A stretch of 25,319 nucleotides of DNA from a virus. Its lineage: Duplodnaviria; Caudoviricetes. The position numbers were made by a program, and so were the translations under genes. The DNA is taken from IMG/VR virus record IMGVR_UViG_3300049601_000003, positions 1 to 25,319 of that record, one strand, 5' to 3'. Of this stretch, positions 3 through 15,336 are shown piece after piece. Positions within the stretch are counted from its first letter, which is position 1; each line of letters begins with the position of its first letter. The notes under the pieces are model-generated. The model searched no databases. It was not told where the DNA came from and saw only the letters and a program-made list of their open reading frames with translations.

Positions 3-236
3 ACCTACAGCAGCACGGCTGACTGTGTCGAAGTTCTGCAGAGAGCGTGCGGCGGTCGCCTGATTGACGGCGAAGACCCGAGAAGCGTACGCCTCATACG
101 GGACACCAAGAACCCCATGTACGACGCCATTCTCCTTCGCGAAGGTGGCTACACCAAGCTACTCAACAGCATCAAGCGGGGCGAGCTGGACCTGGACAAG
201 CTGGAGAGGTACGCTGGTGAAGGCGCGCAAGAGTAG
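3..236 (+). CDS. DUF397 (BldB-like) family protein, 5' truncated by the window edge
   Basis: Not in the ORF track; translated by hand in frame 3: TYSSTADCVEVLQRACGGRLIDGEDPRSVRLIRDTKNPMYDAILLREGGYTKLLNSIKRGELDLDKLERYAGEGAQE*. Fits the DUF397 pattern S-x-S..CVEV...RD(S/T)K-x-P...(W/Y)..(F/L)...(V/I)K-x-G. Confidence 0.7.
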   Translation, partial: TYSSTADCVEVLQRACGGRLIDGEDPRSVRLIRDTKNPMYDAILLREGGYTKLLNSIKRGELDLDKLERYAGEGAQE

Positions 237-459
237 TTACAGCGAAGCGATGGACTGTGTGCGAGTCATGCAGCGCGAGACCCCAGGACGCCTCCTTGAA
301 GGCGAAGACCCTCGAAAGATCCGTATCATCCAGGACACGAAGCTTCCCTCCTGGGGAGTCATCTTCCTAGGCGAGAGGACGTACCAGAACTTCTTGGCGG
401 ATGTCAAGCGGGGTAGGTACGACCTGGACAAGCTGACCGAGTCAAAGAGTTACGAGTAG
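217..459 (+). CDS. DUF397 (BldB-like) family protein, second tandem paralogue
   Basis: GTG at 217 preceded by GGAGAGG, a better start than 64. MKARKSSYSEAMDCVRV...IQDTKLP...YQNFLADVKRGRYDLDKL contains the RKSSYS..CV and DTK-x-P signatures and aligns with the upstream ORF. Confidence 0.72.
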   Translation: MKARKSSYSEAMDCVRVMQRETPGRLLEGEDPRKIRIIQDTKLPSWGVIFLGERTYQNFLADVKRGRYDLDKLTESKSYE

Positions 460-518
460 GTCAGCAAATGTGTCCACTCAATGATAACTGTTCATGTCAC
501 GAAGATGAAGGAGCACTA

Positions 519-683
519 ATGGCTAAGTCCGACGTCCCGCCGAAGGGTAGCAAGAAGGTCGCGCCGAGCAAGAAGACGGGCAAGGTGCCGCCGGAGTCCA
601 AGCCGGGCAACGCCAAGTCCAAGGAGGCTGGCAGGAAGGGCGCGCAGAAGTCCGGCAACATGGGCTTTGGCAAGAAGAAGTGA
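519..683 (+). CDS. small Lys/Gly-rich basic protein with a KGG-like motif
   Basis: ATG at 519 after RBS GAAGGAG. MAKSDVPPKGSKK...KEAGRKGAQKSGNMGFGKKK; strong GC3 codon bias; GTGA overlap with the next gene. Confidence 0.7.
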   Translation: MAKSDVPPKGSKKVAPSKKTGKVPPESKPGNAKSKEAGRKGAQKSGNMGFGKKK

Positions 684-892
684 AGCAGACGCAGCGCATC
701 GGCTACCGAAAGAGTGCCAGTCCTACCTACCGAGATGGTGCAGCAACCATCATGGGTGTGCAGATGAGTGTCTGCCAGGCAGGTCTGCACATCTGCAAGC
801 ACCGAGGTAGCAAGCCGGATCCGCACGGCAGCAAGCAGCGACGACGTGCACGCAACAAGGTTGCACGTGCCTCCCGCAGAGCTAACCGATGA
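680..892 (+). CDS. hypothetical small Arg-rich protein
   Basis: 70-aa ORF coupled by 4-bp overlaps at both ends (GTGA, ATGA); very basic C-terminus. Confidence 0.65.
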   Translation: MKQTQRIGYRKSASPTYRDGAATIMGVQMSVCQAGLHICKHRGSKPDPHGSKQRRRARNKVARASRRANR

Positions 893-1677
893 CAGCTACT
901 GCAGAGAACACTGGCAAGCTTACGCCTAGCAGCCTTGGCGGGCTAAGGGTTGCTGCTGTTCGGGAGCGGCCCAAGACCATCAACATGCTCGTCTACGGTG
1001 ACTCCGGTGTTGGCAAGACACAGATCACCGGGTCAGCAGACGCTGTGCCTGAGATGCGTCCCATCCTCGTCATCGACGTCGAGGGTGGTACGCTCACACT
1101 GGCTCATACGTACCCGGACGCTGAAGTCGTTCGTGTGCAGAGCTGGGACGACATGCAGCGGCTGTACAACGAGCTGTACCGAGGGGATCATCCCTACAGG
1201 ACCGTTGTCCTGGACTCGCTCGGTGAGATCCAAAAGTTCTCCATGTACCAGATCATGAAGGACCTGGTTGCTCGGGAACCGAGTAGAGACCCGGACATCC
1301 CCAGTATGCGGGAGTGGGGTAAGAACATCGAGCAGATGCGGCTCTTCGTTCGTGCCTTCCGCGACCTGCCCATGAACGCCCTCTTCACCTGTCTTGCCAA
1401 GCAGGACAAGGACCCGAAGACGGGTACAGTGAAGACGCTGCCTCAGCTGCCTGGCAAGCTGGCTAACGAGGTAGCAGCCTTCCTGGACATCGTGACGTAC
1501 ATGTACGTCAAGAACATCAAGGAAGGAGAGGCGTACGTCCGTAAGCGCTTCCTGCTTACGGGTGCAACAGAAACCCAGGTGGCTAAGGACCGCTCAGGCA
1601 GTCTGCCCCTGGTACTAGAGGAACCGACGATGCGTGACATCTACGACTACGCAATCAATCGAAAGGCAAACGCGTGA
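889..1677 (+). CDS. Sak4-like / AAA_24 RecA-fold ATPase (single-strand annealing/recombination)
   Basis: Walker A YGDSGVGKT, IDVEGG, Walker B VVLDSL and C-terminal AKDRSG-x-LP; directly followed by a DUF669-like SSB, the usual Sak4 pairing. Confidence 0.85.
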   Translation: MTATAENTGKLTPSSLGGLRVAAVRERPKTINMLVYGDSGVGKTQITGSADAVPEMRPILVIDVEGGTLTLAHTYPDAEVVRVQSWDDMQRLYNELYRGDHPYRTVVLDSLGEIQKFSMYQIMKDLVAREPSRDPDIPSMREWGKNIEQMRLFVRAFRDLPMNALFTCLAKQDKDPKTGTVKTLPQLPGKLANEVAAFLDIVTYMYVKNIKEGEAYVRKRFLLTGATETQVAKDRSGSLPLVLEEPTMRDIYDYAINRKANA

Positions 1678-2210
1678 GCGACGACCTGATGAGCGGCGAC
1701 GCGATGGACTTCAGTATCGACTTCACCAACGTCGAGACTCGGAACTTCGACCCGATGCCGCTGGGTAAGTACCTGGTGGCGGTTACCGACTTCGAGGCCA
1801 AGGAGTGCGGCCCGAACTCCAAGAACGCTGGAGCGCCCCTCCACCAGTTCGAGTTCACCGTGCAGGAGCCCAAGGAAGTCGACGGCTACGGCAAGGTCGA
1901 GGGCCGCAAGCTCTGGTCCAACATGATGCCGACGGTCTCCGCAACGCTCTTCAACCTGAAGGGCTTCCTCGGAGCTCTCGGCTACGACGTCGAGGGCAAG
2001 CTCGACTACAACCCGACCAGGATCCTCGCTGCACCCTTCGAGGAGCGACTGCTCGTCGTCAAGGTCGTCATCCAGGGACCGCGTCAGGACCCGAGGGACC
2101 CGAGCAAGACGTACGACGCCCGTAACGAGATCAAGGCCTACTTCCCGGCGGAGAGCTGGGATGGTGTGAAGGCCTCGGCGACTAACGAATCCAAGTCGCT
2201 CCTGCCGTAA
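1674..2210 (+). CDS. DUF669-like single-stranded DNA-binding protein
   Basis: N-terminal IDFTNVE..FDPMPLGKY-x-V-x-V, GRKLW, LFNLKGFLGALG and C-terminal RNEIKAY; position after the Sak4-like gene. Confidence 0.75.
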   Translation: MSDDLMSGDAMDFSIDFTNVETRNFDPMPLGKYLVAVTDFEAKECGPNSKNAGAPLHQFEFTVQEPKEVDGYGKVEGRKLWSNMMPTVSATLFNLKGFLGALGYDVEGKLDYNPTRILAAPFEERLLVVKVVIQGPRQDPRDPSKTYDARNEIKAYFPAESWDGVKASATNESKSLLP

Positions 2211-2224
2211 GTAGTGCAGACGGG

Positions 2225-2432
2225 CCGGTGTTGGCTGTGAGCGTTCGTCATACGTTCTACTTCCTTGTCATGGAAGCAGCTAGCGGTAGATGCAGGACCG
2301 GGAGCGGGAGGGTACCCCGCACAACACGGAGGGACCTCGACGAGGTTGCCGTAGTCAAGTCCTAGGCAGAGTGCACTTTGATCCGATGTACTCTATGACG
2401 GGCGGCGCTCAGTAGAGGTTCGAGGTCCCTCC
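2225..2432 (+). ncRNA. candidate structured ncRNA or ssDNA structural element in the SSB-primase spacer
   Basis: The 254-nt gap has no ORF of 60 aa or more. Stems: 2230-2237/2277-2284 closes two hairpins (2239-2257, 2260-2276); hairpin 2304-2320; a perfect 13-bp helix GGAGGGACCTCGA/TCGAGGTCCCTCC (2328-2340/2420-2432) encloses further stems (2348-2352/2402-2406, 2354-2357/2396-2399, 2368-2375/2387-2394). Mismatches in these stems are G-U on the + strand. Confidence 0.55.
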
Positions 2433-2464
2433 TCTCCACCCAGTGCTGTGAAGGGCGGCTATAC

Positions 2465-4657
2465 TTGGCTCATTCTGAGTTCTACGCATCACGCAAGACG
2501 TTCTTCCGAGCGTTGTATAGCGGCACTGAGGGCTACATCGTACTGGCTACAATGGACACTGACCTGAATGACTTTCAGGAGGAGTTCTTCAAGTGGCCAA
2601 GCGAGATGGAGACGTTCCTCGATCGCATCGAAAGCATCGAAGGACGAAACGTTTACTACTGCCCGCAGGTGTTCAACGAGCCACGCAGGCTCAAGAAGAC
2701 GGTAGCGTACACTACCTGTGCATGGGCTGACCTTGACACGTGCCACCCCGATGACCTAGCACTAGAACCATCCATCACAATCATGTCGTCACCTGGTAAG
2801 TACCAGGGCATCTGGTTGTTCGACAGGCTCCTCGAACCCGATGTAGCAGAGAACATCTCGAGGAGAATCGCGGCAGCATACAAGTCCAACGGTGCCGACC
2901 ACTGCTGGAACTTGGGTAGGCTACTTCGTGTCCCGTACACGATGAACTACAAGTACGTGTCACCGCACACAGTGACGGTAGTCAAGACTACTGAAGGCGG
3001 ACGTTTTAGGCCTGCGGAGTTCGATGTCTTCCCGCAGGTGCAAGGCAACGAGTACATGGACATCCCGTTCCCTGGTGACCTCCCCCAGGAGACGGCAGAG
3101 GAACTCATGGAGATACACAAGTACGACATCTCCGACAAGGCGCGCGAACTATACCAGTTCACTCCTCCCCCAGGAGAGTCTTGGTCACACCCCCTGTGGA
3201 GTTTGCTCATGCACCTCTTCGAGGCTGGGCTCACTAAAGAACAGGTGTTCGTCGTAGCCAATGAGGCTGCATGCAACAAGTTCAAGCGTGATCGAAAGCC
3301 TCCGGAGTACCTCTGGTCGGACGTATGCCGCGCCTTCTTTCGCAACAAATTCCACACGGGGGTGATGCGCCCGCGCGGCATAGAGGCAGAGCCGCCACTC
3401 CTAACGGACGCAGAGCAAGCTATCGCTGAACGACAGAACACCTTCGTAGAGAGGTACATCGATTGGGCATCTGGTCTCGGCGACGCCGCACCTCAGTATC
3501 ATCAGGCGGGCGCCTTCGTAAACTTGTCAAGTCTGTTGGCAGGCTCTGTAAAGCTGCCAACGAGCTTTGGGACGGTGGTGCCTAACCTCTGGTTCATGAT
3601 CCTGGCGGACACCACGCTGACTCGTAAGACGACGTCCATGGACATCGCCATGGATATGGCAGGCGAGGTGGATCCAGATGTACTCCTAGCGACTGACGGA
3701 TCCATCGAGGGACTGTTTACCGCCCTTGCAGCCAGGCCTGGAAGACCATCTGTCTTCCTGCGCGACGAGTTCTCTGGTCTCCTAGAACAGATGAACAAGC
3801 GGGACTACATGGCAGGGTTCGCTGAGATGCTAACCAAGCTGTACGACGGTAAGCAGCAGAAGCGACTACTACGACGTGAGGTCGTCGAAGTCAAGAATCC
3901 CGTCGTCATCCTGTACACGGGTGGTATCCGTAGCAAGGTGCAGGAGATCCTGACTGATGAGCAGATCGCATCAGGCTTCCTACCCCGGTTCATCTTCATC
4001 ACAGCTGAGTCGGACATCAACAGGGTCCAGCCACTCGGTCCGCCAACGGAGAAGGACTGGGGCGAGCGAGGTACACTGATGGACGAGCTCCGCGATCTCT
4101 CTGCAGCCTACACTGCTATGGAGCAGGTGAAGGTCAAAGGCAAGCTCGTGACCACGCATAACAAGCGCGTGTGGACCGCAGAGCTCACGTCGCAAGCGTG
4201 GACTAGGTACAACGCGCTTGAGACCTCTCTGATGAAGTCTGGAGTCAAGTCAGAGAAGCCCGAAGTGTTCACGCCCATGTATGACCGACTAGCCAAGTCG
4301 CTGTTGAAGGCAGCAGTGCTGTTGGCCGCGAGTCGGCAAGCTGGCTGCGAACGAGTACTAGTCGAGCTCAGAGACATCGTACATGCTGCACACTACGGAC
4401 AGAAGTGGAGGGAGTACGCTAAGGAAGTAGTCATCAACGTTGGTCACAGCCGTGACGAGAAGCGCATCATGACGATCTACAATGCGATCCTTCGTAGTGC
4501 AGGTATCGCACGTAGCGCACTCATGCAGGCCTACCACCTATCATCTCGAGATGCCAATGCCGCCCTGGAGACACTCGAACAACGTGGACTCATCACGCGC
4601 ACACGAGTTGGCAGAACCGAGATGATCAAGCCCAACATCTCTTCGGAGGAAGAATGA
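2465..4657 (+). CDS. DNA primase/helicase: N-terminal RepB-type primase domain plus C-terminal DUF3987-like P-loop helicase
   Basis: Primase motifs AWADLD, SSPGKYQGIW and LLRVPYTMNYKY; helicase region ADTTLTRKTT (Walker A-like), FLRDEF (Walker B) and SGFLPRF; C-terminal winged-helix-like LETLEQRGLI. Confidence 0.85.
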   Translation: MAHSEFYASRKTFFRALYSGTEGYIVLATMDTDLNDFQEEFFKWPSEMETFLDRIESIEGRNVYYCPQVFNEPRRLKKTVAYTTCAWADLDTCHPDDLALEPSITIMSSPGKYQGIWLFDRLLEPDVAENISRRIAAAYKSNGADHCWNLGRLLRVPYTMNYKYVSPHTVTVVKTTEGGRFRPAEFDVFPQVQGNEYMDIPFPGDLPQETAEELMEIHKYDISDKARELYQFTPPPGESWSHPLWSLLMHLFEAGLTKEQVFVVANEAACNKFKRDRKPPEYLWSDVCRAFFRNKFHTGVMRPRGIEAEPPLLTDAEQAIAERQNTFVERYIDWASGLGDAAPQYHQAGAFVNLSSLLAGSVKLPTSFGTVVPNLWFMILADTTLTRKTTSMDIAMDMAGEVDPDVLLATDGSIEGLFTALAARPGRPSVFLRDEFSGLLEQMNKRDYMAGFAEMLTKLYDGKQQKRLLRREVVEVKNPVVILYTGGIRSKVQEILTDEQIASGFLPRFIFITAESDINRVQPLGPPTEKDWGERGTLMDELRDLSAAYTAMEQVKVKGKLVTTHNKRVWTAELTSQAWTRYNALETSLMKSGVKSEKPEVFTPMYDRLAKSLLKAAVLLAASRQAGCERVLVELRDIVHAAHYGQKWREYAKEVVINVGHSRDEKRIMTIYNAILRSAGIARSALMQAYHLSSRDANAALETLEQRGLITRTRVGRTEMIKPNISSEEE

Positions 4658-5427
4658 CCGACTGCGTCGCCATCGTCTCAGGTGGCCTCGACTCCACGAC
4701 GCTCGCCTACGACCTCGTAGCGGACGGCCACAAGCCGCACCTGCTCGCCTTCGACTACGGTCAGCGTCACAGCAAGGAACTGCAGTATGCACAGCGCACG
4801 GCGACTCAGCTCAAGCTCGACTTCACCCTCGTCGATCTGCGGAGTGTGACCAAGCTCATCAGCAACAGTGCGCTTACCGGGGACGATGATGTCCCTGAGG
4901 GCCACTACGCCGAGAGCAACATGAACCTCACGGTCGTCCCGAACCGCAACATGATCATGCTGTCCATCGCAGCTGGTGCGGCTGTCAACAGCAAGTGTGA
5001 GTTCGTCGCTACTGGCGTACACGCAGGCGATCACTGGGTCTACCCGGATTGCCGTCCGCGCTTCATCTCCTCGGTAGCACGAACTGTCATCCTCGGCAAC
5101 GAAGGCTTCGGTGCCATCCCTACTCTCGATGATGGTGAAGCACCGTCCGATGACTTCATCAGGGCCCCGTACCTGACCTTCCTCAAGGAGGACATCGCCT
5201 ACCGAGCATTCCAGCTGGGCGTTCCGGTTCACGAGACCTGGAGCTGCTACAAGGGTCGAAGCGCTCACTGCGGCCGATGCGGCACCTGCGTCGAGCGCCT
5301 CGAGGCCATCGCTGAGGCTCAGGCGCGATACATGAAGGAGACAGGTAACCTCGAGCTGCCCGACTCCTGGCAGGACTACACGGAGTACGAGGACACCGAG
5401 TACTGGAAGCACGCCATCAGCAAGTAA
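4654..5427 (+). CDS. queC: 7-cyano-7-deazaguanine (preQ0) synthase QueC
   Basis: PP-loop SGGLDSTT, FDYGQRH, VVPNRN, YPDCRP and Zn motif TWSCY-x6-CGRCGTCVER. Confidence 0.96.
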   Translation: MTDCVAIVSGGLDSTTLAYDLVADGHKPHLLAFDYGQRHSKELQYAQRTATQLKLDFTLVDLRSVTKLISNSALTGDDDVPEGHYAESNMNLTVVPNRNMIMLSIAAGAAVNSKCEFVATGVHAGDHWVYPDCRPRFISSVARTVILGNEGFGAIPTLDDGEAPSDDFIRAPYLTFLKEDIAYRAFQLGVPVHETWSCYKGRSAHCGRCGTCVERLEAIAEAQARYMKETGNLELPDSWQDYTEYEDTEYWKHAISK

Positions 5428-5457
5428 GAACAGAACCCACAACAAGGAGAACAAGTC

Positions 5458-5970
5458 ATGAAGTTCGGAAAGCTCATCGCCTCGACCATCGCTACCGCCG
5501 TCGCTACGCTCTCGATGAACGTCGTCGCGCCTACCACTGCGCACGCTGCAGTCAGTAAACAGAGTGCCGTGCAGCAGGCTGCCGCTGCCACGAAGGCCTC
5601 CAAGGCATTGGCTTGGGCCAAGACGCAAGACGACAAGTACTACTGCTACGGCGGTGAGGGACCGCGTTGCTACGACTGCAGTGGCCTGGTCCAGACCGCC
5701 TACAAGAAGCAGGGTATCTCGCTCCCGCGGACGTCCGGGGACCAACGTGCCTCATCAAAGACTGTGCACGTCTCGCGCTACGCTGCTGCACCGGGCGACC
5801 TGGTCTTCAGTAGCAATAACGGCCACGTCGACCTCCTGGCGAAGAAGCCCTACAAGAAGAACGGCAAGTGGTACACCGTAGTCTTCGGAGCAGGCAGTTC
5901 CAAGACCGGGATCCGATACCGTACCTTCTCGTACGTGCCTCACATCGAACGCGTCAAGGGGGCCAGGTGA
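5458..5970 (+). CDS. secreted NlpC/P60 family peptidoglycan hydrolase
   Basis: Signal peptide MKFGK-hydrophobic-AHA; Y-x-YGG-x-GP..YDCSGLVQ-x-AY, LPRTS, PGDLVF and GHV catalytic Cys/His motifs; RBS AAGGAG. Confidence 0.9.
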   Translation: MKFGKLIASTIATAVATLSMNVVAPTTAHAAVSKQSAVQQAAAATKASKALAWAKTQDDKYYCYGGEGPRCYDCSGLVQTAYKKQGISLPRTSGDQRASSKTVHVSRYAAAPGDLVFSSNNGHVDLLAKKPYKKNGKWYTVVFGAGSSKTGIRYRTFSYVPHIERVKGAR

Positions 5971-5971
5971 C

Positions 5972-6088
5972 ATGCCCTGGGGGCAGTTCTTCACCTTCGT
6001 CGGTCAGGTGGCAATAGTCATCTTCCTGCTGTTCATCGTTGCAGCGATGATTAGCGTAGTGATCGACCACTTCAACAAGAGGAACTAG
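5972..6088 (+). CDS. small single-pass membrane protein (38 aa)
   Basis: Hand-translated MPWGQFFTFVGQVAIVIFLLFIVAAMISVVIDHFNKRN*; fills the gap between NlpC/P60 and queD with 1-bp spacing on each side. Confidence 0.65.
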   Translation: MPWGQFFTFVGQVAIVIFLLFIVAAMISVVIDHFNKRN

Positions 6089-6089
6089 T

Positions 6090-6551
6090 ATGGTGCAGAG
6101 CATCTCCGTCAAGCACAACTTCGAAGCAGCGCACAGACTGTATACGACCCCTGGCAAGTGTCAGGCGATTCACGGTCACTCGTTCTGGGCCACGCTGACG
6201 CTGTACGGTCCCGTCGACGCCAACGGGCTAGTGTGCAGCATCGACTTCGGAGATCTCAAGAAGGCGTACAGGTCCTACCTGGACAACAACTTCGACCATC
6301 ACATCCTGCTCAACCAGGATGACCCCTGGGCACAGCCACTCGCACCGAGCAAGGAGCCGTACCACCCGCACGGCGTAGAGTTCGTCCGTCTGCCAGGACT
6401 CAAGCCCGTCCCGGAAGATCCCACGACGGAGAACCTCGCCCGTTGGATTGGTGAGTACATGACCGAGCAGGTCCAGGGGAACAACGTCGAGCGCATCCTG
6501 GTTCAGGTTCAGGAGACGGCCGTCAACGGGGCCTCATGGAGGTCTTCTTAG
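6090..6551 (+). CDS. queD: 6-carboxy-5,6,7,8-tetrahydropterin synthase QueD
   Basis: FEAAHRL, KC-x3-HGHS, IDFGDLK, FDHH-x-LLN, PTTENLA and VQET motifs. Confidence 0.94.
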   Translation: MVQSISVKHNFEAAHRLYTTPGKCQAIHGHSFWATLTLYGPVDANGLVCSIDFGDLKKAYRSYLDNNFDHHILLNQDDPWAQPLAPSKEPYHPHGVEFVRLPGLKPVPEDPTTENLARWIGEYMTEQVQGNNVERILVQVQETAVNGASWRSS

Positions 6552-7006
6552 TGAGACGCTACCTCGAACGGAACGGCCACCTACGGCGTTGGGGTGCCGT
6601 CTACATCCTGACAATTCTGTTCCTGGGTTCATGGCTTGGACAAGCCATCACTATGTGGGACCAGGGCTGGAATGAGTTCTGGGCAGCAACGTTCGAGAAC
6701 TGGCAGTCCGAGTGGCTACAGCTGATCTTCCAGGCAGTACTGCTACTCGGTGCCAAGCACTGGTTGTTCCGTATCGATGCAGAAGACCTCGAGCGGATCG
6801 AACACAAAGTAGACCTGCTACGTCCGGAGCCTACCCCAGGTGTCATCGACCTCGGTGAGGTTGTACCCGGACAACGCATGCTGATCCGAGGAGCACGTTA
6901 CAACGTGACAGAGATCAGCATGGACCTAGGAGGCAACCTCAACATCGGTCTACAGATCGACCTCGTGTATCGCGGGAAGCGTATCTACAGAGAAGGAGGT
7001 CGGTGA
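6536..7006 (+). CDS. membrane protein, DUF6766-like N-terminal part plus a soluble C-terminal extension (start may be GTG 6551)
   Basis: Two hydrophobic segments and the motif FWAATFENWQSEWLQL, resembling the FENWQSE(F/W)LQ signature I recall for DUF6766. Confidence 0.55.
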   Translation: MEVFLVRRYLERNGHLRRWGAVYILTILFLGSWLGQAITMWDQGWNEFWAATFENWQSEWLQLIFQAVLLLGAKHWLFRIDAEDLERIEHKVDLLRPEPTPGVIDLGEVVPGQRMLIRGARYNVTEISMDLGGNLNIGLQIDLVYRGKRIYREGGR

Positions 7007-7734
7007 TGCGTCTACTAGAACACTATGCAAGTGTTCAAGGTGAAGGCCCTCGTACAGGAACACCAACACAGTTCGTACGTTTCGCTGGGTGCAACCTTCG
7101 TTGCCCTGGGTGGCCGTGCGATACGCCGTTCGCCATCGAGCCCAAGCAGTGGCGGAAAGAAGCTCAGTACCCGTCTAACAACGATCTCCTCGACAAGATT
7201 CAACGCATGGCGGAGGAGCAGGGTGCGAGGAACATCTGCCTTACCGGGGGAGAGCCTCTCTTGCAGCCAACCAACGCTATCGTGCGACTAGCACAGCGCG
7301 CTGTGTGCAACCTCGGCTGCACCGTCGAAACATTCACGAACGGCTCACGGCGTATTCCAGCACAGCTGACGACCTGGTCGTCGTTCGTGATGGACTGGAA
7401 GCTTGCTGGCAGTGGTGAGAAGTTCAGTCCCGAGTACGAAAGCAACAGGCGGGCGAACGTCGATCTCCTGAACGTGTATCGCCACAGCGGTACACAGAAC
7501 AGCATCAAGTTCGTCTGCAAGGACGTGGACGACCTCCACGAGGCACTAGACATCTACGAGGAACTGGATCTAGTTGTCTGGTCTGGCAACGTGTACTTCG
7601 GTGTAGTCTGGGGTGGCGACCTCAAGGCTGGAGACCTAGTAGACAGACTCCTCGTCGCGAACCCTGGACGGAACTGGTACCTCAACGTCCAGACTCACAA
7701 CTACATCTTCAATCCGCAGGAGCGTGGTCGATGA
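7003..7734 (+). CDS. queE: 7-carboxy-7-deazaguanine synthase QueE (radical SAM)
   Basis: SVQGEG-x2-TG-x-P-x2-FVRFAGCNLRCPGWPCDT, LTGGEPLLQ, TNGS, IKFV and C-terminal VQTH. Confidence 0.93.
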   Translation: MMRLLEHYASVQGEGPRTGTPTQFVRFAGCNLRCPGWPCDTPFAIEPKQWRKEAQYPSNNDLLDKIQRMAEEQGARNICLTGGEPLLQPTNAIVRLAQRAVCNLGCTVETFTNGSRRIPAQLTTWSSFVMDWKLAGSGEKFSPEYESNRRANVDLLNVYRHSGTQNSIKFVCKDVDDLHEALDIYEELDLVVWSGNVYFGVVWGGDLKAGDLVDRLLVANPGRNWYLNVQTHNYIFNPQERGR

Positions 7735-8294
7735 CTGAAGACTTCATGCAGAGCGAGCTCACGGCTCAGGCTGCCTCGGTGCTATTCCATGCCGCCGGCT
7801 TGGATGTCACAAATCCACACGGGGCGGCTACGCCTGCACGTTTCGTGCGGATGCTTCAGGAGCTCACTACCCCCGAGCCGTTCAAGTTCACGACGTTCCC
7901 GGCTGAGAGCCAGAACATGATCATGCTGAAGGACATCCCGTTCTCCAGCGTGTGTAGCCACCACGTGATTCCGTTCGTGGGATACGCTCACGTGGCCTAC
8001 GTTCCGAACAAGCTCATCGCCGGACTCTCCAAGTTCGCGCGCCTGATCAAGGCGTCGTCGCGTAGCCTTCAGGTGCAGGAGAGCCTCACGATGCAGATCG
8101 CCGACGGCATCGAACATCATCTCGAGCCGCTCGGTGTCGCTGTCATCATGGAGGCAGAGCACCTGTGCATGACCATCCGCGGCGCACAGTCACCTGGCAC
8201 GAAGACGCGTACTGCTGAGATGCGCGGGGTCTTTGCTGATCATGCGAAGACGGCGAAGACTGAGTTCCTCAGCTACGTCAACGGAGGTAAGTGA
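7731..8294 (+). CDS. folE: GTP cyclohydrolase I FolE
   Basis: TPARF, IPFSSVCSHH-x2-PF-x-G-x-AHVAY-x-P, GLSKFAR, LQVQE-x-LT and AEHLCM-x2-RG. Confidence 0.96.
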   Translation: MTEDFMQSELTAQAASVLFHAAGLDVTNPHGAATPARFVRMLQELTTPEPFKFTTFPAESQNMIMLKDIPFSSVCSHHVIPFVGYAHVAYVPNKLIAGLSKFARLIKASSRSLQVQESLTMQIADGIEHHLEPLGVAVIMEAEHLCMTIRGAQSPGTKTRTAEMRGVFADHAKTAKTEFLSYVNGGK

Positions 8295-8950
8295 TGCCAC
8301 TACCCTACCAGCCCGTTCGTCTCCGGTACGGCTACAAGCCCGGCAGCGCCTACCAGGCCATCCCCTGTGTGGATACTGCAGTAGTCATCGGTGAGCCCAC
8401 GGACATCTACTTCGACGAGGACCTCACCGACCCGTACTCGCACCACGCCAACAGTGGTGGTATCTCAATCATCAACGGCCCGGCTAGCCCCAACGGGTAC
8501 TGGGTCGACGGTACCATCTCCCTGTGGATCCGCGACCTCTGGTCGCCGAACAAGGATCACCAGACTGAGTTCCAGGTTCGCCTCCGTAAGTGCACCGTCC
8601 TACCTGACATCGACGGTGTCGTCAAGCCGAACGGTCAGTCTGGTCCGACGCTCAATACGAACAGTACGCTCTTCTCGGACGAAGACTACGGCCCTGTCCA
8701 CTACGACGACCTGCTCTGGGATGCTAACGGCAACGTCTCGCCCGACGAGCCATCACACACCCCCGTCAACAAGCACTACATGTTCGAATTCAAGTGTGAA
8801 GAGGTGAACGCGAACGAGCGCCTGCGCGTGGCGATCAGTCAGTTCCACTCAGCGAACGCCAACGGCAACTTCCTGGTGCCCGGATACGACATGCCCTACC
8901 CGGGCTACATCTGGCGTGCGCAGGCACGTCTCAAGGCCTGGCCCCGGTAA
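8291..8950 (+). CDS. hypothetical beta-rich protein (219 aa)
   Basis: Long ORF with typical codon bias that overlaps the folE stop; no catalytic motif recognised. Confidence 0.75.
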   Translation: MMPLPYQPVRLRYGYKPGSAYQAIPCVDTAVVIGEPTDIYFDEDLTDPYSHHANSGGISIINGPASPNGYWVDGTISLWIRDLWSPNKDHQTEFQVRLRKCTVLPDIDGVVKPNGQSGPTLNTNSTLFSDEDYGPVHYDDLLWDANGNVSPDEPSHTPVNKHYMFEFKCEEVNANERLRVAISQFHSANANGNFLVPGYDMPYPGYIWRAQARLKAWPR

Positions 8951-8952
8951 CG

Positions 8953-9126
8953 ATGGATGAAATCGAAGTCGACACTGTTATAGTCGTCCAGAGTGACGGT
9001 AGCGACTTCGAGTTCAATACCAAGCAGTGCCCGGGGATGGGGGCCTACCTCGTCCCCGGGCTGTCGGAAGACAGCTGCACACTCTGGATTACCATCCCAC
9101 TCAAGAGAGGGCATGACACGACATGA
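8953..9126 (+). CDS. hypothetical protein (57 aa)
   Basis: Hand-translated MDEIEVDTVIVVQSDGSDFEFNTKQCPGMGAYLVPGLSEDSCTLWITIPLKRGHDTT*; fills the gap and has an ATGA overlap with the next gene. Confidence 0.55.
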   Translation: MDEIEVDTVIVVQSDGSDFEFNTKQCPGMGAYLVPGLSEDSCTLWITIPLKRGHDTT

Positions 9127-9434
9127 CGCTTCAGAACCTCGCCAAGCAGGCCGGAGAAGATGGTCACAGGTGGTTCCCCGAGGTGCAGCACCTGCCGCAC
9201 CAGGTGCTCAGCCTCGCCGGGGAGGTTGGCGAGCTGGCCAACCTGGTCAAGAAGGTCGACAGAGGTACGGATACCTTCGATGACCTTAGGCATCAGATGA
9301 TCTCCGAGCTCATGGACGTCTTCGTCTACGCGTTCGCGGCGGCGGCGCTTCTGGGCATCAAGGACCTCGACCAGATGTATGCCAACACGCGGAACCTGAA
9401 CGAGCTGAGGTTCAACAAGTCCTCCATCATATGA
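9123..9434 (+). CDS. MazG-like nucleoside triphosphate pyrophosphohydrolase
   Basis: LSLAGEVGELANLVKK...ISELMDVFVY gives the ExxE...ExxD metal-binding motif of all-alpha NTP-PPases. Confidence 0.85.
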   Translation: MTLQNLAKQAGEDGHRWFPEVQHLPHQVLSLAGEVGELANLVKKVDRGTDTFDDLRHQMISELMDVFVYAFAAAALLGIKDLDQMYANTRNLNELRFNKSSII

Positions 9435-9796
9435 TGGGTTACGAGTTCGAACAGTACGCCAACAAGGAGGACGAGATGCCCGAACAGCCGAGTCTTGCGC
9501 AGCTGATCAACGCTGCGAATAACGAGTACGATGAGCGTACCCAGGAGCGTCACGACGAGGGTGCAGACAAGTACGGGCCGCTGAAGTTCCTCACCGTCAA
9601 CACTCTCGAGGAGGCCATGCAGGAGGTTCTCGACCTGGGCAACTACGCTCGGTACACGTACATCAGACTGTGGCTGCTGAACCACATGCTCGACGATGCC
9701 TACGGTGAGGACGCCCCTCAGAACATTACGTTCTACACGAACCGTCCGGACGTGGTGCCGCCTGCAGACATCGAGACCCCGAAGGGGGAGCAGTAA
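9431..9796 (+). CDS. putative all-alpha NTP pyrophosphatase-like protein
   Basis: R-x2-EG-x2-KYG ... LEEAMQEVLDLGNY (E/ExxD..NY), a pattern seen in phage MazG-fold dNTP diphosphohydrolase-like families; coupled to both neighbours. Confidence 0.55.
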   Translation: MMGYEFEQYANKEDEMPEQPSLAQLINAANNEYDERTQERHDEGADKYGPLKFLTVNTLEEAMQEVLDLGNYARYTYIRLWLLNHMLDDAYGEDAPQNITFYTNRPDVVPPADIETPKGEQ

Positions 9797-10572
9797 TGGC
9801 CAAGCTCGCACTGATCCCGCCCTTCTCTCTGTGCGGTGCATCTGTCAGAGATACCCCCGAAGGGTACTACCTCTACCTGCCTCAGTTGATGGGGCACCCC
9901 CTGTACGACAACTTCGTGTGGCGATCGGACACAGCAGTGTCCTACACGATCCTGGACAACGGCGCATTCGAGGGAGTGTCACTCAACGCTGTCGAACTAC
10001 TCGAGCGAGCCGCACAGCTCAGCGTCAGTGAAGTAGTCATCCCGGACACGCTCGGCGACATGGCTTCAACCCTGGACAAGGTCCAGCACTTCGACAAGGT
10101 CACCCGTCGTAAGCGGATCGAGCTTCTCGAAACGTACCAGGGCATGAACTACATGGCAGTCGTTCAGGGGCGTACGTACGAAGAGCTGGTGCGATGCGTC
10201 GCTGAGTTCACGAAGTACCCCTTCATCACTACGATCGGGATCCCCAAGCACCTAGTCAAGAGTGTCGACAAGAGCGTCCGCTGTCGACTAGCTGAACGCA
10301 TACAGCGGTCGTACGGAGACATGTACCCCGTACACCTCCTCGGAACTGCTCCGCAGCTCCCGGACGAGATCCTGCACATCAGGTACCTGAACTGCGTACG
10401 TGGTATGGACACATCGATGCCGTACGTGTATGCATACCACGGTCTCGATATCAACGAAGCCCACGAGGACCTCAAGCGTCCTGACAACTACTTCGAACTC
10501 GAGCCTGAAGAGTTCAACACCGAGCTACTTACGCATAACATCACCACCCTAGAAGGATGGGCACATGGCTGA
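9796..10572 (+). CDS. TGT/DpdA-like TIM-barrel guanine transglycosylase
   Basis: Ordered motifs ILDNGAFE (cf. TGT DSGGF), VVIPD, MAVVQG (cf. GIVQG), IGIP, VHLLG and RGMDTS; same transcription unit as queC/D/E/folE; TAATG coupling. Confidence 0.7.
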   Translation: MAKLALIPPFSLCGASVRDTPEGYYLYLPQLMGHPLYDNFVWRSDTAVSYTILDNGAFEGVSLNAVELLERAAQLSVSEVVIPDTLGDMASTLDKVQHFDKVTRRKRIELLETYQGMNYMAVVQGRTYEELVRCVAEFTKYPFITTIGIPKHLVKSVDKSVRCRLAERIQRSYGDMYPVHLLGTAPQLPDEILHIRYLNCVRGMDTSMPYVYAYHGLDINEAHEDLKRPDNYFELEPEEFNTELLTHNITTLEGWAHG

Positions 10573-10717
10573 CCTGGAACTCAAGCTCGTACCCGACGCC
10601 GGACGCATCGCGGATGTGCTAGACATCATGTCGTCGCACATGACAGCTGCTGCAAACGAGCTTCGTGAGTACGAGGCGAATCGGGAGGAAGAGTGCGACG
10701 ACGTAAGCGACTCGTAG
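10565..10717 (+). CDS. hypothetical acidic protein (50 aa)
   Basis: Hand-translated MADLELKLVPDAGRIADVLDIMSSHMTAAANELREYEANREEECDDVSDS*; RBS-like GAAGGA; overlaps the upstream stop. Confidence 0.55.
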   Translation: MADLELKLVPDAGRIADVLDIMSSHMTAAANELREYEANREEECDDVSDS

Positions 10718-10811
10718 AGAAGTTCCTCTGCCCGGTATGCTTTCGACTGAAGCGGTCACCATTTCACCTACTCGTCAAGGCTGTGGGCCTCTGTCCGGGG
10801 GAGAACAATCG

Positions 10812-11144
10812 ATGAGAGACCACTTCACGAAGATCGGTGAGCTGGCCGGGTCGTACGCAACCAGCGTCGACGTGACCACGACGCTGACTGTGCGCACCAC
10901 CACAATCTGTGTGAGCGCTACCCTCAAGCCGCATACGCCCAAAGACTTGCGAGACGATAGCACGGTACGTCAACAACTCTTTGAGTCGGCACAAAAGCTT
11001 ATAGCCTCCGTGGAGGCAGAAGGTTACGTGCACAAGCAGCCACCGGCCATCTTTATTGATGGTGAGGTAGTGAGCTCACTGGCTGAGAAGCCCAGCCACA
11101 TCGTCTCTGGTGTACTCGAACTAGAGCTCGGAGCAAATGCGTGA
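10812..11144 (+). CDS. hypothetical protein
   Basis: ATG at 10812 after GGGGAG, preferred to 10737; GTGA overlap with the polymerase start. Confidence 0.6.
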   Translation: MRDHFTKIGELAGSYATSVDVTTTLTVRTTTICVSATLKPHTPKDLRDDSTVRQQLFESAQKLIASVEAEGYVHKQPPAIFIDGEVVSSLAEKPSHIVSGVLELELGANA

Positions 11145-14100
11145 GTGAAGAAGTCGAAGAGGTCGTCCGAAAGCATCCTGCAGCAGAGTGCGAGAACTGC
11201 CCGTTGCAGAAGGACGGCCTCTTCGTCCCTAGCGACGGACCAGCAAAGGCTCGTATCGCCTTCGTAGGCGAAGCTGCAGGGCGTCAAGAGGTAGACGCTG
11301 GCAAGCCCTTCATTGGCGTAAGCGGCCAACTCCTCGACAAGGTAAACAACCACTACAACATCACCCGTCGACAGGTACTCCTCACCAATGCGACGCTCTG
11401 TAGGCCCCCAGGCCTCGAGAACATGTCACCGCCTGCAGGAGCTATCAAGGCATGCAGGCCTCGACTCATCCACGAGCTGACGGAACGTGGTGTTGAGACA
11501 GCAGTCGCTCTCGGGAACGTTGCTTCGCAGTCCCTGCTCGCCAGTGCGGATGGCGTGACCAAACTCCGAGTCGGACCTGGCAAGCCATCACCATACGCAG
11601 AACACATCCGTGTGGTTCCTACCTTCCATCCCGCCGCGTGCCTGCGCAACCCGGACTTCTTCCCTTCACTCGTGAAGGACATCTCCAAGATCAACCGCAA
11701 GCAGGTTCCCTGGGAGCCACCGAAGTACGTAGTATACGACACTGTATCCGAGGCCATCGCCGTCTTAAAGGAGGTCAAGAACCACACGGGGCGGCGGTTG
11801 GTGATCGATATCGAGACGGACATCGAGAAGGACGTAGCGTACGATCATCCCAACAACTACGAGCTCCTGTGTATCGGTCTTGGTTACGACAAGAAGCGTG
11901 TCGTGGTCATCGAGCGCAACGCCCTTCGGGACTCTCGGGTGTTAGCCGCTCTCGGTGATCTGCTTCGAAGTAAGGACCTGACAGCACAGAACGGCAAGTA
12001 CGACATCGCAGGGCTCTACCCTCACGTCGGAGCACTCGAGCTGAAGTTCGATACGATGCTCGCTAGCTACGCCAAGGACGAACGTCGAGGGGTTCACTCC
12101 CTTGACTACCAGGGTATCGAACTGCTGGGCACTCCTGACTGGAAGCACGAGCTCGACAAGTACGAACCGAGGAAGAACGGCTACGGCGTCATCCCGGTAG
12201 ACGAGCTGGATCGATACAACGCGTACGACGTCTCGATCACCTGGGATCTGCAGGACTACTACGAGGAGCGTCTGAGTCCTGACGAGCGCGCGGACCACGA
12301 TCATCGTGTAGCAGCTTCAAACCAGTTGGTGTTCCTGGAGCTCAACGGGATCAAAATCGACGTTGACTACAACACTAAACTGACTACTGAGTACCTGGAT
12401 GTCCTAGAGGGAATCAAGGACAAGCTAGTCAGACTCATCGACGATCCTGAGTGGTCAGACTTCAACCCAAACTCGCCTAAGCAGGTCAAGGAGGTTATCG
12501 AGGACATCTTCAGTATCAGCATCCCCCTCAAGAGGAACCAGAAGGGACAACCAGCTAAGAGCACCGACGAAGAGACGCTGCGGGGTCTGTCAGAGAAGTT
12601 CGACCCCGAATCACGGGAGTTCGACTTCCTATCAACAATGCTGGAGTGGCGAGAGAATGCCAAGCTCTACGGCTGTGTTGATGAGGATACGCAGATCCTC
12701 ACCCAGCGAGGGTGGCTTCGCTTCAACGAGGTCCGCGAGGGCGACCAGACACTCTCAGTCAACCCTGAGACAGGACTCAGTGAATGGGATACAGTTGAAG
12801 GCGTACATCTGTACCCGGGCAGACACAACCTGGTCTCCTGGGAAGGCAAGACCTTCTCTGCGCTGACTACGCACGACCACCGCTGGCTCACTAACCGGCA
12901 ACCGATCAGGTCCGGCGGACGTCACGGCTGGCTCTGGAAGACGACGGACACCGTACGAAGCAACGACAGGATTCCCAAGGCAGTCCCTTGTGCAGACCTC
13001 CCCACGGTACCGAAGTACCGAGACGAGTTCGTAGAGCTCGTTGCCTGGCTCTGGACAGAGGGTAGTGTTGACGGTCCTGGACTCAACATCATCCAATCAC
13101 ATGCTGTCAACGAGCCCAACGTACTCCGTATCCGACGCGCATTGACAACGCTCTACCCCAATCCCGATAGGAACAGACTCTACTGGTCAGAGCGTCAAGC
13201 GACTGAACGCATCACAGAGTTCTACATCGGTGCCAGAATGGCCAACGAATTCAAGGAGGTGTTCCTCAAGCATAAGGTGGTTAACCCGGAGTTCATCCGA
13301 TCGCTCACCAAGGCGCAGCTCCAACTGTTCGTCGACGTCTCCATTCTAGGAGACGGATGTACAAAGGGAGATGCACTAGACAGCATCTCTCAGGAGAACA
13401 CTGAACAGCTGTTCGCAGTGCAGCTAGCCTGTACCCTGCTTGGTATCTCGACTAGCATCGGCTGGTACAACAACGCCTACCGGATGCTCATCCAGAGGGG
13501 CATCTGGCATCAACCACTACAGGCAGCACGAGGCAAGAACGGACTCGAGATCAAGGAGGTGGAGTACACAGGTACTGTCTGGTGTGTGTCGACACGTAAC
13601 GCCAACTGGCTAGCGAGGCGGAATGGAAAACTCTACTACACCGGAAACACGTACGTCAAGGGAATCCGAAAGCGACTCTACCAAGGTCGTGTGTACCCCA
13701 GTTTCCTTCTTCATGGTACAACAACGGGACGGCTCGCTTGCCGGAACCCTAACCTTCAGAATGTCCCCCGAGGAAGCAAGATCCGTTCTCAGTTCATTCC
13801 AGCCTCCGCGGGGAACGTCTTCGTTTCAGTCGACTACAGCCAAGCTGAGCTTCGCGTGCTCACTTGGCTCGCTCAGGAAGAGTACTTTCGGAGCATCTTC
13901 AACGATGGTGATCGGGACCTCTTCAACGAACTCGCTCCTGTTCTCTATGGTGACATATCCCATCTATCGCCTGCCGAGAAAAAAGAAAAGCGAATCCGTG
14001 TCAAGGCCTACGTCTACGGGCTTGGCTACGGCCGAGAGGCACTCTCCATCGCACAGGAATTCAAGATCGGTGTCATGGAAGCCCAATCCGGTATGGATGC

Positions 14101-14509
14101 TTTCTTTGACGTCATCCCTCACATCGTGGCGTACCAGAAGAGCGTCGAAGACGACATCCGCAGCAAGCGCGTCCTCACTACCCCCTTCGGACGACGTAGG
14201 AGATTCCACCTCCTGACAGCACACAACATCAACAAGTGCATCAAGGAAGGACTAGCTTTCCGTCCGCAGAGCATCAGCTCCGATCTCTGTCTTCGTGCGT
14301 TCACCTGGGCTAGGCCTGCTCTCAGAGGCAAGGCACAACTACGCAACATCGTCCACGACAACATCATGGCCGAGTGCCGTGAAAAGGATGCAGAAGAAGT
14401 CGGTCAGGTTCTCAACGATCTGATGCTGAAGTCCGCACAACAGCTGGTAGGGGACTATGTCCAATTCGCAACAGACACCACCGTCGGAGACAGCTGGGGA
14501 GCCGTATAG
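11141..14509 (+). CDS. polA: family A DNA polymerase: N-terminal family-4 uracil-DNA-glycosylase-like domain, 3'-5' exonuclease, polymerase; contains an intein
   Basis: UDG-like: CENCPL, FVGEAAG, GKPFIGVSG, TNATLCRP, VALGNVA, PTFHPAA. Exonuclease: IDIET, QNGKYD, DTMLA, YNAYD. Polymerase: FNPNSPKQ, TTTGRL..NPNLQN, motif A DYSQAELR, motif B RIRVKAYVYGLGYG, motif C VHDN. Confidence 0.95.
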   Translation: MSEEVEEVVRKHPAAECENCPLQKDGLFVPSDGPAKARIAFVGEAAGRQEVDAGKPFIGVSGQLLDKVNNHYNITRRQVLLTNATLCRPPGLENMSPPAGAIKACRPRLIHELTERGVETAVALGNVASQSLLASADGVTKLRVGPGKPSPYAEHIRVVPTFHPAACLRNPDFFPSLVKDISKINRKQVPWEPPKYVVYDTVSEAIAVLKEVKNHTGRRLVIDIETDIEKDVAYDHPNNYELLCIGLGYDKKRVVVIERNALRDSRVLAALGDLLRSKDLTAQNGKYDIAGLYPHVGALELKFDTMLASYAKDERRGVHSLDYQGIELLGTPDWKHELDKYEPRKNGYGVIPVDELDRYNAYDVSITWDLQDYYEERLSPDERADHDHRVAASNQLVFLELNGIKIDVDYNTKLTTEYLDVLEGIKDKLVRLIDDPEWSDFNPNSPKQVKEVIEDIFSISIPLKRNQKGQPAKSTDEETLRGLSEKFDPESREFDFLSTMLEWRENAKLYGCVDEDTQILTQRGWLRFNEVREGDQTLSVNPETGLSEWDTVEGVHLYPGRHNLVSWEGKTFSALTTHDHRWLTNRQPIRSGGRHGWLWKTTDTVRSNDRIPKAVPCADLPTVPKYRDEFVELVAWLWTEGSVDGPGLNIIQSHAVNEPNVLRIRRALTTLYPNPDRNRLYWSERQATERITEFYIGARMANEFKEVFLKHKVVNPEFIRSLTKAQLQLFVDVSILGDGCTKGDALDSISQENTEQLFAVQLACTLLGISTSIGWYNNAYRMLIQRGIWHQPLQAARGKNGLEIKEVEYTGTVWCVSTRNANWLARRNGKLYYTGNTYVKGIRKRLYQGRVYPSFLLHGTTTGRLACRNPNLQNVPRGSKIRSQFIPASAGNVFVSVDYSQAELRVLTWLAQEEYFRSIFNDGDRDLFNELAPVLYGDISHLSPAEKKEKRIRVKAYVYGLGYGREALSIAQEFKIGVMEAQSGMDAFFDVIPHIVAYQKSVEDDIRSKRVLTTPFGRRRRFHLLTAHNINKCIKEGLAFRPQSISSDLCLRAFTWARPALRGKAQLRNIVHDNIMAECREKDAEEVGQVLNDLMLKSAQQLVGDYVQFATDTTVGDSWGAV
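12674..13648 (+). mobile_element. intein (325 aa) with LAGLIDADG-type homing endonuclease, inserted in the DNA polymerase
   Basis: KLYG|CVDEDTQILTQRGW (block A), TTHDHRW (block B), ELVAWLWTEGS and LFVDVSILGDG (LAGLIDADG-like), VWCVST...YYTGN|TYV (blocks F/G). Removal restores the PolA motif KLYGTYVKG. Confidence 0.93.
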
Positions 14510-14843
14510 CAAAGACGTCTGCAAGAACCCACTTTGCAGAAAGACTAGAAAGCGACGACGCAGCTCCAACAAGCTCGAAGGAGCACTCGGTCTCTGCGAG
14601 AGCTGCTACAAGCGATGGGACATGGCAGGTAGACCCAAGGTAGTGCCACCTGCGAGAACAAAGAAGTTCGTACCTACCAACCCGCCCAAGGCCTACGACC
14701 AGTTCCTCCTAGCAGTTAGGAGGAACCCGTACGACACGGTTGCGGAGCAGGCAATCCGTGTTGGTGTCAGCGAACGTACAATCGAACGCTACAGAGCGAG
14801 GATGAGGAAAGATGCCGCCCAGGAAAAAACGCAACGTCGGTGA
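14457..14843 (+). CDS. putative DNA-binding protein (Cys-rich N-terminus plus C-terminal helix-turn-helix)
   Basis: CKNPLC...GLCESCY putative Zn ligands; TVAEQAIRVGVSERTIERYR HTH. The start is uncertain because it overlaps the polymerase end. Confidence 0.65.
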   Translation: MSNSQQTPPSETAGEPYSKDVCKNPLCRKTRKRRRSSNKLEGALGLCESCYKRWDMAGRPKVVPPARTKKFVPTNPPKAYDQFLLAVRRNPYDTVAEQAIRVGVSERTIERYRARMRKDAAQEKTQRR

Positions 14844-15156: not shown

Positions 15157-15163
15157 CCGTCCC

Positions 15164-15188
15164 AGCTCACTCGATCTCTGAGTGAGCT
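15164..15188. terminator. 9-bp inverted repeat hairpin, possible terminator or operator
   Basis: AGCTCACTC-gatctct-GAGTGAGCT beginning 8 nt after the upstream stop; no U-tract. Confidence 0.45.
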
Positions 15189-15300: not shown

Positions 15301-15336
15301 TAAGCGCAGTCCGCACAACTGACAAAGTGGGAGACA

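Follow-up and report, generated by a model that had tools for sequence, protein, structure and literature searches.

Twin heptaloop hairpins in a three-way junction of a soil-phage SSB-primase spacer: a possible docking site in the replication mRNA

The locus described here raises the question of why the spacer between the genes for a single-stranded DNA-binding protein (SSB) and a primase should hold a three-way junction whose two hairpins differ in their stems and expose nearly the same seven-nucleotide loop. The locus lies in IMG/VR virus record IMGVR_UViG_3300049601_000003 (25,319 bases, estimated completeness 44%), and this whole stretch is referred to below as the window. In the original prediction, the hairpins were taken for mimics of the tRNA-Asp anticodon arm, directed at a tRNA-guanine transglycosylase (TGT)-like enzyme or at an anticodon nuclease. 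The answer favoured here, and held tentatively, is that the junction may act in the sense-strand mRNA, where a dimeric and probably host-encoded factor would dock on the two loops. The tRNA mimic is a specific case of such protein docking.

The 8-bp stem predicted to close two hairpins was found with the coordinates and letters given for it (Table 1), and the three-way junction is both the minimum free energy (MFE) and the centroid structure of positions 2226-2288 in RNAfold, at -22.8 kcal/mol. It starts 18 nt past the SSB stop codon. The core of the closing stem pairs GTTGGCTG (2230-2237) with CAGCTAGC (2277-2284) and is extended by one U.G pair (2229/2285); the sequence following 2285 is GTAGATGCAGG, which is not a U-tract. 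The heptaloops are UCGUCAU (2245-2251) in hairpin 1 and UUGUCAU (2265-2271) in hairpin 2. As predicted, their starts are 20 nt apart on stems of differing sequence, with U-G-U in register in hairpin 2 and C at position 33 (anticodon-loop numbering) in hairpin 1. On both strands of the window, 61 GTCAT sites were counted, of which 3 lie in the same register of a heptaloop closed by at least 5 pairs, namely those of hairpins 1 and 2 and that of a further hairpin at 2562-2580. The stability of the window junction corresponds to a z of -2.40, with 3 of 200 dinucleotide shuffles folding equally well.

Profile queries gave 197 metagenome loci and 224 viral loci; the best 80 of each were fetched and supplemented with 6 and 80 loci around relatives of one locus (L073, described below) and 4 loci from genomes. 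After de-duplication, 150 unique loci (838,653 bases) remained, giving 151 sequences with the window. Scanning of the upstream regions for heptaloop hairpins and for paired GTCAT identified a second copy of the element in L073, a 5.6-kb metagenome contig encoding a primase 45-46% identical to that of the window and an SSB that is ~26% identical. As in the window, the element sits in the SSB-primase spacer. The SSB gene ends at 1175, the element starts 7 nt past its stop codon, and the 82-nt spacer is followed by the primase gene (ATG at 1258) and then by QueC. The L073 junction is the RNA MFE fold (-36.4 kcal/mol, ensemble frequency 0.89) with a z of -6.9, and 0 of 200 shuffles were equally good. 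It is because of this second instance (L073 1183-1245) that the window junction is clearly non-random. A covariance model built from the window alone (R1) scored L073 at 13.3 bits (E 3), within noise, and was not used for counting.

The two instances were compared pair by pair from the loops and the junction outwards and tabulated by position; MAFFT misaligned them. All of the pairs in the two elements are standard (43/43), including 6 G.U pairs, each of which is G.U on the + strand. Among the 17 comparable pairs, 4 are unchanged, 1 is altered on one side and 12 are altered on both sides. The four loops are identical at 6 of 7 positions, the second position alone varying (C, U, U, U), so that 13 of 14 loop letters are shared between the window and L073 while the stems have been rewritten; loop conservation, which had been proposed as a check of the element, thus speaks for it. 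The loop starts are 20 nt apart in the window and 17 nt apart in L073, and the junction nucleotides differ (U / UA / none in the window, AA / none / A in L073). No motif is common to the flanks of both instances, and the distance from the junction to the primase start is ~180 nt in the window versus 13-15 nt in L073. Given that the loop letters were kept while nearly every stem pair changed, the element is judged from this comparison to be real, with selection acting on the loops and not on the stems.

That two unrelated hairpin pairs merely share their loop letters by chance is extremely improbable. In favour of chance are the z of -2.4 of the window element when taken alone and the existence of stemless twin TYGTCAT pairs. 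Such pairs, with the loops 13-30 nt apart, occur 3 times in the window and the 150 loci (1.73 million strand-bases), where the frequency at which single sites were observed predicts ~1. However, stems round both loops together with a closing stem are found in the window and L073 only, and the third pair (L092) has none of them. The probability of stems of 3 and at least 5 pairs plus a closing stem of at least 8 was estimated at ~1e-5 (3/8 per pair), and the L073 pair would, in addition, need to land in the corresponding SSB-primase spacer. Both stems were also lacking in each of 97 loci with GTCATA-N6-14-CTTGTCATGG in viral contigs (0/97) and, among the matches listed for TCGTCAT-N12-14-TTGTCAT in viral contigs, in every one of 121 (0/121).

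The element is rare and patchy within the phage group, its carriers being 2 of the 151 related sequences. In 50 whole related viral records, one twin TTGTCAT was found, the stemless one. Twin loops were absent from the relatives of L073, both in a set of 6 loci and in a set of 80 loci (34 with new upstream regions). The nearest of these (56-61% identity) keep the long closing stem and differ in their tops, and the relative L380 has the outer stem of L073 in common with a different interior. Generic three-way junctions are not enriched in the 138 upstream regions scored (55 candidates versus 47.9 in shuffles). Twin similar loops of any sequence numbered 5 pairs versus 1.26 in shuffles, with only those of the window and L009 being intergenic. 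As a separate observation, 40 of the 97 GTCATA-N-CTTGTCATGG matches have a gap of 12 and fall into a single family of conserved sequence that is spread over unrelated viral contigs (L292, L294, L295, L300 and ~35 more). The AT-rich contigs L285, L335, L288 and L358 bear GTCAT repeat arrays that resemble iterons.

The fold exists on the sense strand only. The G.U pairs are all on the + strand and therefore become C.A mismatches on the opposite strand; the junction was not formed when the reverse strand of the window was folded, and the reverse strand of the L073 fold is weaker by ~10 kcal/mol. A fixed double-stranded DNA site is unlikely, since the loop spacing is 20 nt in one instance and 17 nt in the other, a difference that hairpin arms can absorb. 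A scan of 1600-2700 gave neither a sigma-70-type promoter nor a U-tract terminator (0 terminator-like sites). Given the absence of a promoter from the spacer and the length of only 82 nt of the L073 spacer, the element would be co-transcribed with SSB and primase.

In the favoured account, the junction would be part of the polycistronic mRNA for replication and would hold a dimeric protein with both of its loops. Once docked, this protein would change the termination, processing, stability or translation of the transcript at the SSB / primase-que border and would thereby tune the downstream primase-que message; at this border, an SSB in high demand gives way to a primase of which little is needed. 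We infer RNA, rather than single-stranded DNA, as the folded molecule, a dimeric protein as its reader and expression as what is affected. A slowly evolving, conserved host partner is favoured over a phage protein, since the loops are identical despite protein identities of 26-46%.

Several points weigh against this account. The window junction by itself exceeds chance only slightly, and the 254-nt spacer as a whole folds no more stably than shuffles (z -0.91 and -0.65 in two analyses). There are only two instances, too few for covariation statistics, with stem sets that are unalignable and were compared off-tree, and hairpin 1 of L073 has just 3 pairs. The element is dispensable for the group, as it is absent from ~149 relatives. 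The differing distance to the primase start argues against a single simple occlusion of a ribosome site. The partner protein is hypothetical, a TGT-family enzyme being the sole candidate reader that can be named. No RNA dataset is among the listed runs that carry the stretch. Finally, the element also folds with DNA parameters, so that a single-stranded DNA form is possible.

That last point bears on a replication signal for priming or as an origin, in which the + strand, unwound and covered with SSB, would fold and show its loops to the adjacent primase-helicase or to a host primase. The loops contain GTC, which is also the recognition triplet of T7 primase, an enzyme of another primase family. 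The location between the genes for SSB and primase suits such a signal, and a RepB-primase-like N-terminal domain was matched in the L073 protein (PF16793, E 2.5e-4, below the cut-off) and is precomputed in many homologues. The junction is the DNA MFE fold in L073 (-16 kcal/mol, z -5.2) and in the window core. However, the DNA fold of the window is weak (-8.2 kcal/mol, z -1.6, 13 of 200 shuffles equally good), and the 3-bp hairpin 1 of L073 and the 6 G.T pairs are poor in DNA. The element occurs in 2 of ~150 relatives that share the primase family, L073 has no opposite-strand partner, and no minimum of cumulative GC skew was seen at the element, GC skew being uninformative here. The closest precedent is RSF1010, whose RepB' requires the hairpin-forming ssiA and ssiB sites (PMC8567376). 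Like ssiA and ssiB, the junction would be a strand-specific hairpin signal at, or for, a primase of a related family (PMC8567376). Unlike the loops conserved here, the parts of ssiA that are recognised are the 5' flank, as six single-stranded bases, and the hairpin base, not the loop, according to the available text (PMC8567376). The ssi sites are also an inverted pair on opposite strands, with primers starting 3' of the hairpin (PMC8567376), whereas the two hairpins here are on one strand inside a closing stem and share no flank motif of the RSF1010 type. A DNA priming signal is therefore distinctly unlikely; if true, it would give a recognition site for a large, uncharacterised family of soil-phage primase-helicases.

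The remaining part of the spacer was also examined for structure. The spacers of the group, of which 108 unique ones were folded (median length 111 nt), are far more stable than shuffles, with a median z of -3.3 and a z below -2 in 69, and an unbroken helix of at least 9 pairs is found in 82 of the 108 versus 6.8 in shuffles. This group-wide stem typically has a G-rich 5' arm and a C-rich 3' arm, ends just before the primase start and varies in its tops between phages; it possibly serves in termination, in processing or as an origin hairpin. The long stem of the group is capped in L073 by the twin hairpins, and in the window its counterpart is the stem 2328-2340 / 2420-2432, which is separate from the junction. 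In the MFE fold, GTCA at 2354-2357 pairs with the TGAC of ATGACG (2395-2400) inside the long stem. The window spacer holds three GUCA motifs and one AUGAC in total, so that alternative pairing is possible.

Intercistronic stem-loops are known to set expression ratios within operons, and Actinobacteria have hairpin terminators that lack a U-tract. A purely structural hairpin, acting as a partial terminator or as a 3'-end protection or processing site with loops that have no reader, would suit the long stable stem with differing tops in most relatives and the recurrence of the L073 outer stem in L380 with another interior. It would also share with such elements a GC-rich stem between a gene for an abundant protein and a gene in low demand. 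However, no conserved loop is needed there, whereas the loops are the conserved part here, and the explanation leaves 13 of 14 identical loop letters unaccounted for, given the rewritten stems. As there is no U-tract either, and the window junction is distinct from the long stem of 2328-2432, this explanation is decidedly improbable.

Pairing of the GUCAU loops with another RNA was considered as well, the original prediction having pointed to ATGACG as a possible partner of the first loop. ATGACG is indeed present at 2395-2400, but the 82-nt spacer of L073 has no counterpart of it, and the proposed pairing was not borne out. The GUCAU loops could instead kiss AUGAC, as offered by start codons followed by AC or by the AUGACUU loop (2567-2573), and so regulate by antisense pairing in cis or in trans. 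The latter loop belongs to the hairpin of 2562-2580, 300 nt downstream in the same mRNA, and has in AUGAC the complement of GUCAU in the twin loops; L073 does not keep this hairpin. Genes starting with ATGAC are found at 889, 4654, 7731, 9123 and 15708, and such starts are common in GC-rich genomes. L073 (5.6 kb) has neither ATGACAA nor a hairpin loop with AUGAC, and its primase begins ATGGAA. With five base pairs being weak and unspecific, kissing is highly improbable.

The loops were compared with the rules of a tRNA-Asp anticodon arm, namely U33, anticodon GUC, a purine at 37 and a 5-bp stem. G-U-C and A at position 6 of the loop (A37) are present in 4/4 loops and U33 in 3/4, and U is at 32 and 38 in all loops. 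In bacterial tRNA-Asp, these two positions are usually C. U-G-U occupies loop positions 2-4 in both L073 hairpins and in window hairpin 2, three loops out of four, and its occurrence together with GUC-A in a phage that encodes que genes is a striking coincidence. The hairpins might be tRNA-Asp (GUC) anticodon-arm mimics that are bound or base-exchanged by host Tgt or by a DpdA-like protein of the phage. In a variant of this, the reader would be aspartyl-tRNA synthetase or an anticodon nuclease. The pairing of two hairpins would engage both halves of a dimer. Identical loops in phages with ~45% primase identity suit a conserved host partner, and the phage encodes QueC, QueD, QueE, FolE and a DpdA-like protein. 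Of the preQ0/TGT pathway that had been predicted, the preQ0 half is thereby confirmed through these four named enzymes, and the transglycosylase half is likely, ESM Atlas being its sole source.

The recognition element of bacterial TGT is U-G-U in the heptaloop of a hairpin (PMC1950534), and three of the four loops share it with the known hairpin substrates of the enzyme, the anticodon minihelix and the virF mRNA hairpin (PMC1950534). Yet the sole variable loop position is 33, with C in window hairpin 1. This is where U-G-U has its U, which TGT and tRNAs require, and where real anticodon loops are most conserved. Unlike in TGT substrates, the remaining letters are also invariant here, positions 32 and 36-38 included, although the determinant given in the available text is U-G-U alone. 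The stems have 6, 5, 3 and 7 pairs and no fixed 5, nothing tRNA-like was detected by ARAGORN (0 tRNA genes in the window, L073, L009, L380, L386 and L387) or by the Rfam tRNA model (no match at E up to 10), and a decoy at the level of mRNA would be far scarcer than tRNA. The substrates on which DpdA enzymes act are DNA (PMC10164549). In the engineered dual TAG hairpins, which have in common with the junction two hairpins in one RNA and the bivalent idea, dual hairpins outcompete single ones (PMC13416341). However, 0-2 nt separate the hairpins here, compared with best linkers of 10-20 nt, and the directly joined design (n0), the poorest in the available text, failed to fully outcompete single hairpins as the 10-20 nt linkers did (PMC13416341). 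Nor does the element track the que genes, co-occurrence with which had been proposed as a check: 106 of 120 relatives have QueC behind the primase, and 2 of 151 sequences have the element. Hence, what survives of the predicted anticodon-stem-loop mimic is a real fold, selected loops and U-G-U in three of the four, and what speaks against it includes the variable position 33 and the lack of que linkage. The mimic is unlikely. Its most specific form is quite doubtful, namely a natural bivalent anticodon-arm mimic that would clamp both active sites of a transglycosylase and so sequester the enzyme, become modified or couple primase-que expression to occupancy. The further proposal that the clamped dimer would be host Tgt or the phage DpdA-like enzyme, at work while phage DNA is rebuilt with 7-deazaguanine, is equally a speculative one.

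Other candidates were tried and dropped. A double-stranded DNA repeat site was set aside on the spacing of 17 versus 20 nt and the strand-specific G.U pairs. A riboswitch was rejected given unconserved junction nucleotides and no Rfam match, preQ1-I/II/III and T-box being among the families, and a T-box specifier (GUC-A) given no T-box match. An armless tRNA with a T-loop would have A and not C at loop position 5, a hammerhead or other ribozyme would have a conserved core, and no intrinsic U-tract terminator was found in 1600-2700. In Rfam searches at E up to 10, only weak snoRNA-type matches were obtained elsewhere and none at the element.

In the E. coli thrS translational operator, two anticodon-arm-like hairpins are bound by a dimer of threonyl-tRNA synthetase; in operators of this type, an anticodon-like hairpin adjoins or overlaps the ribosome-binding site of the gene under control. 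The junction resembles this operator in having two mRNA hairpins with the same anticodon-like heptaloop and in the logic of a dimeric reader, which is hypothetical here. It differs in that the downstream gene encodes a primase and not the reader itself, in that the hairpins are in a compact three-way junction with no linker, and in its variable distance to the start codon (L073 1245 to ATG 1258; window 2285 to TTG 2465). Phage hairpins that are read by their loops include lambda boxB/N, HK022 put and the MS2/PP7 operators. These are likewise short hairpins in which the loop is the recognition element, repeated in the genome and acting in cis on transcripts, and they are unlike the junction in loop size and sequence; the junction has no Rfam match. 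Loop-read hairpins are a familiar kind, of which the compact twin-loop junction is a new variant. Within the library and the terms searched, literature on phage anticodon-arm mimics or decoys and on DpdA with hairpins described no such element.

Should a conserved factor read the loops, the 57-63-nt junction would be a new compact cis-element of phage replication operons, absent from Rfam. Its two natural versions would then define the letters that matter (U-N-G-U-C-A-U) as against the stems that do not. Whatever the reader, the two sequences open the question to direct tests on short synthetic RNAs or DNAs. If the reader were a transglycosylase, queuosine-tRNA mimicry in RNA would be linked to phage DNA hypermodification, and the junction would offer a natural template for bivalent TGT tags. 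Were it a bivalent mimic, the engineered dual TGT hairpins would gain their first counterpart in nature, and DNA-deazaguanine systems their first RNA regulator.

Table 1. Features of the junction, its second copy in L073 and the surrounding genes. Positions are those of the window unless L073 is named; gene identities are from Pfam and PHROGs.
Feature	Position	Strand	Detail
Outer (closing) stem, 5' arm	2229..2237	+	9 bp, 3 of them G.U
Hairpin 1	2239..2257	+	GAGCGT 2239-2244 / ACGTTC 2252-2257, 6 bp, one G.U
Hairpin 2	2260..2276	+	CTTCC 2260-2264 / GGAAG 2272-2276, 5 bp
Outer stem, 3' arm	2277..2285	+	abuts 3' arm of hairpin 2 directly
L073 closing stem	L073 1183-1195 / 1233-1245	+	13 bp
L073 hairpin 1	L073 1201-1207 (loop)	+	loop UUGUCAU, 3-bp stem
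L073 hairpin 2	L073 1218-1224 (loop)	+	loop UUGUCAU, 7-bp stem
SSB-primase spacer	2211-2464	+	254 nt
Second spacer structure	2328..2432	+	13-bp G-rich/C-rich stem 2328-2340 / 2420-2432, branched interior with ATGACG 2395-2400
Hairpin CCTGA-ATGACTT-TCAGG	2562..2580	+	inside primase open reading frame; membership of the element uncertain
Sak4-like annealing protein	889-1677	+	Pfam/PHROGs
DUF669-type SSB	1674-2210	+	PF05037 E 0.0011 (below cut-off); phrog_378 SSB E 2.4e-4
Primase with DUF3987 domain	2465-4657	+	TTG start; homologues align from residue 1-10
QueC	4654-5427	+	Pfam/PHROGs
NlpC/P60	5458-5970	+	Pfam/PHROGs
QueD	6090-6551	+	Pfam/PHROGs
QueE	7003-7734	+	Pfam/PHROGs
FolE	7731-8294	+	Pfam/PHROGs
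MazG-like	9123-9434	+	Pfam/PHROGs
DpdA-like protein (likely)	9796-10572	+	lead from ESM Atlas alone
Family A DNA polymerase, 1122 aa	11141-14509	+	N-terminal uracil-DNA glycosylase (UDG)-superfamily domain PF03167, residues 30-172

The order Sak4-SSB-primase-QueC is typical of the phage group, and QueC starts at most 400 nt past the primase in 106 of the 120 unique loci with at least 900 nt downstream. Among 8000 scored candidates, 1224 metagenomic relatives of the primase lie at E up to 0.001. The closest (P0002-P0004, 78-80% identity) are present in Logan assemblies only and lie outside the DNA comparison. The nearest named protein relatives are those of actinophages, at ~30% identity, which makes an actinomycete the probable host. 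In the GenBank phage collection, neither 1674-4657 nor the spacer has a DNA-level match. Metagenome and genome contigs gave no match when scanned with single proteins, and a genome-contig scan using the alignment identified 4 contigs of metagenome-assembled genomes, which gave no host clue. Positions 1900-2900 of the window, or parts of them, are present in ten soil-metagenome runs from ten studies, and the contig pieces from soil runs X3-X10 have zero differences from the window. The phage thus appears widespread and clonal across this region.

The DpdA-like assignment concerns the protein encoded at 9796-10572, for which no Pfam, NCBIfam or PDB sequence match was found. In ESM Atlas, it had a feature score of 0.96 to a cluster with PF23859 in 17% of its members and a structural TM of 0.70 to a cluster that is 98% DpdA (PF23859). 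As a lead, the protein is a candidate DpdA-like transglycosylase.

Minor features were also noted around the element and in one relative. Near ~500-560 of L009, the primase ATG is immediately preceded by two hairpins with the loops ATCGGAA and ATCGGAT on 7-bp and 5-bp stems, and the 3' arm of the second is a GGAGG ribosome-binding site. Both loops can be read as U33 / CGG / A37, and this is a single instance, with no relatives that have the pair. In the window, the genes from 3 to 16522 are all on the + strand and are followed by tail and lysis genes on the - strand. The NlpC/P60 peptidase gene interrupts the deazaguanine block between QueC and QueD, and an HNH endonuclease gene (14812-15156) follows that of the family A polymerase.

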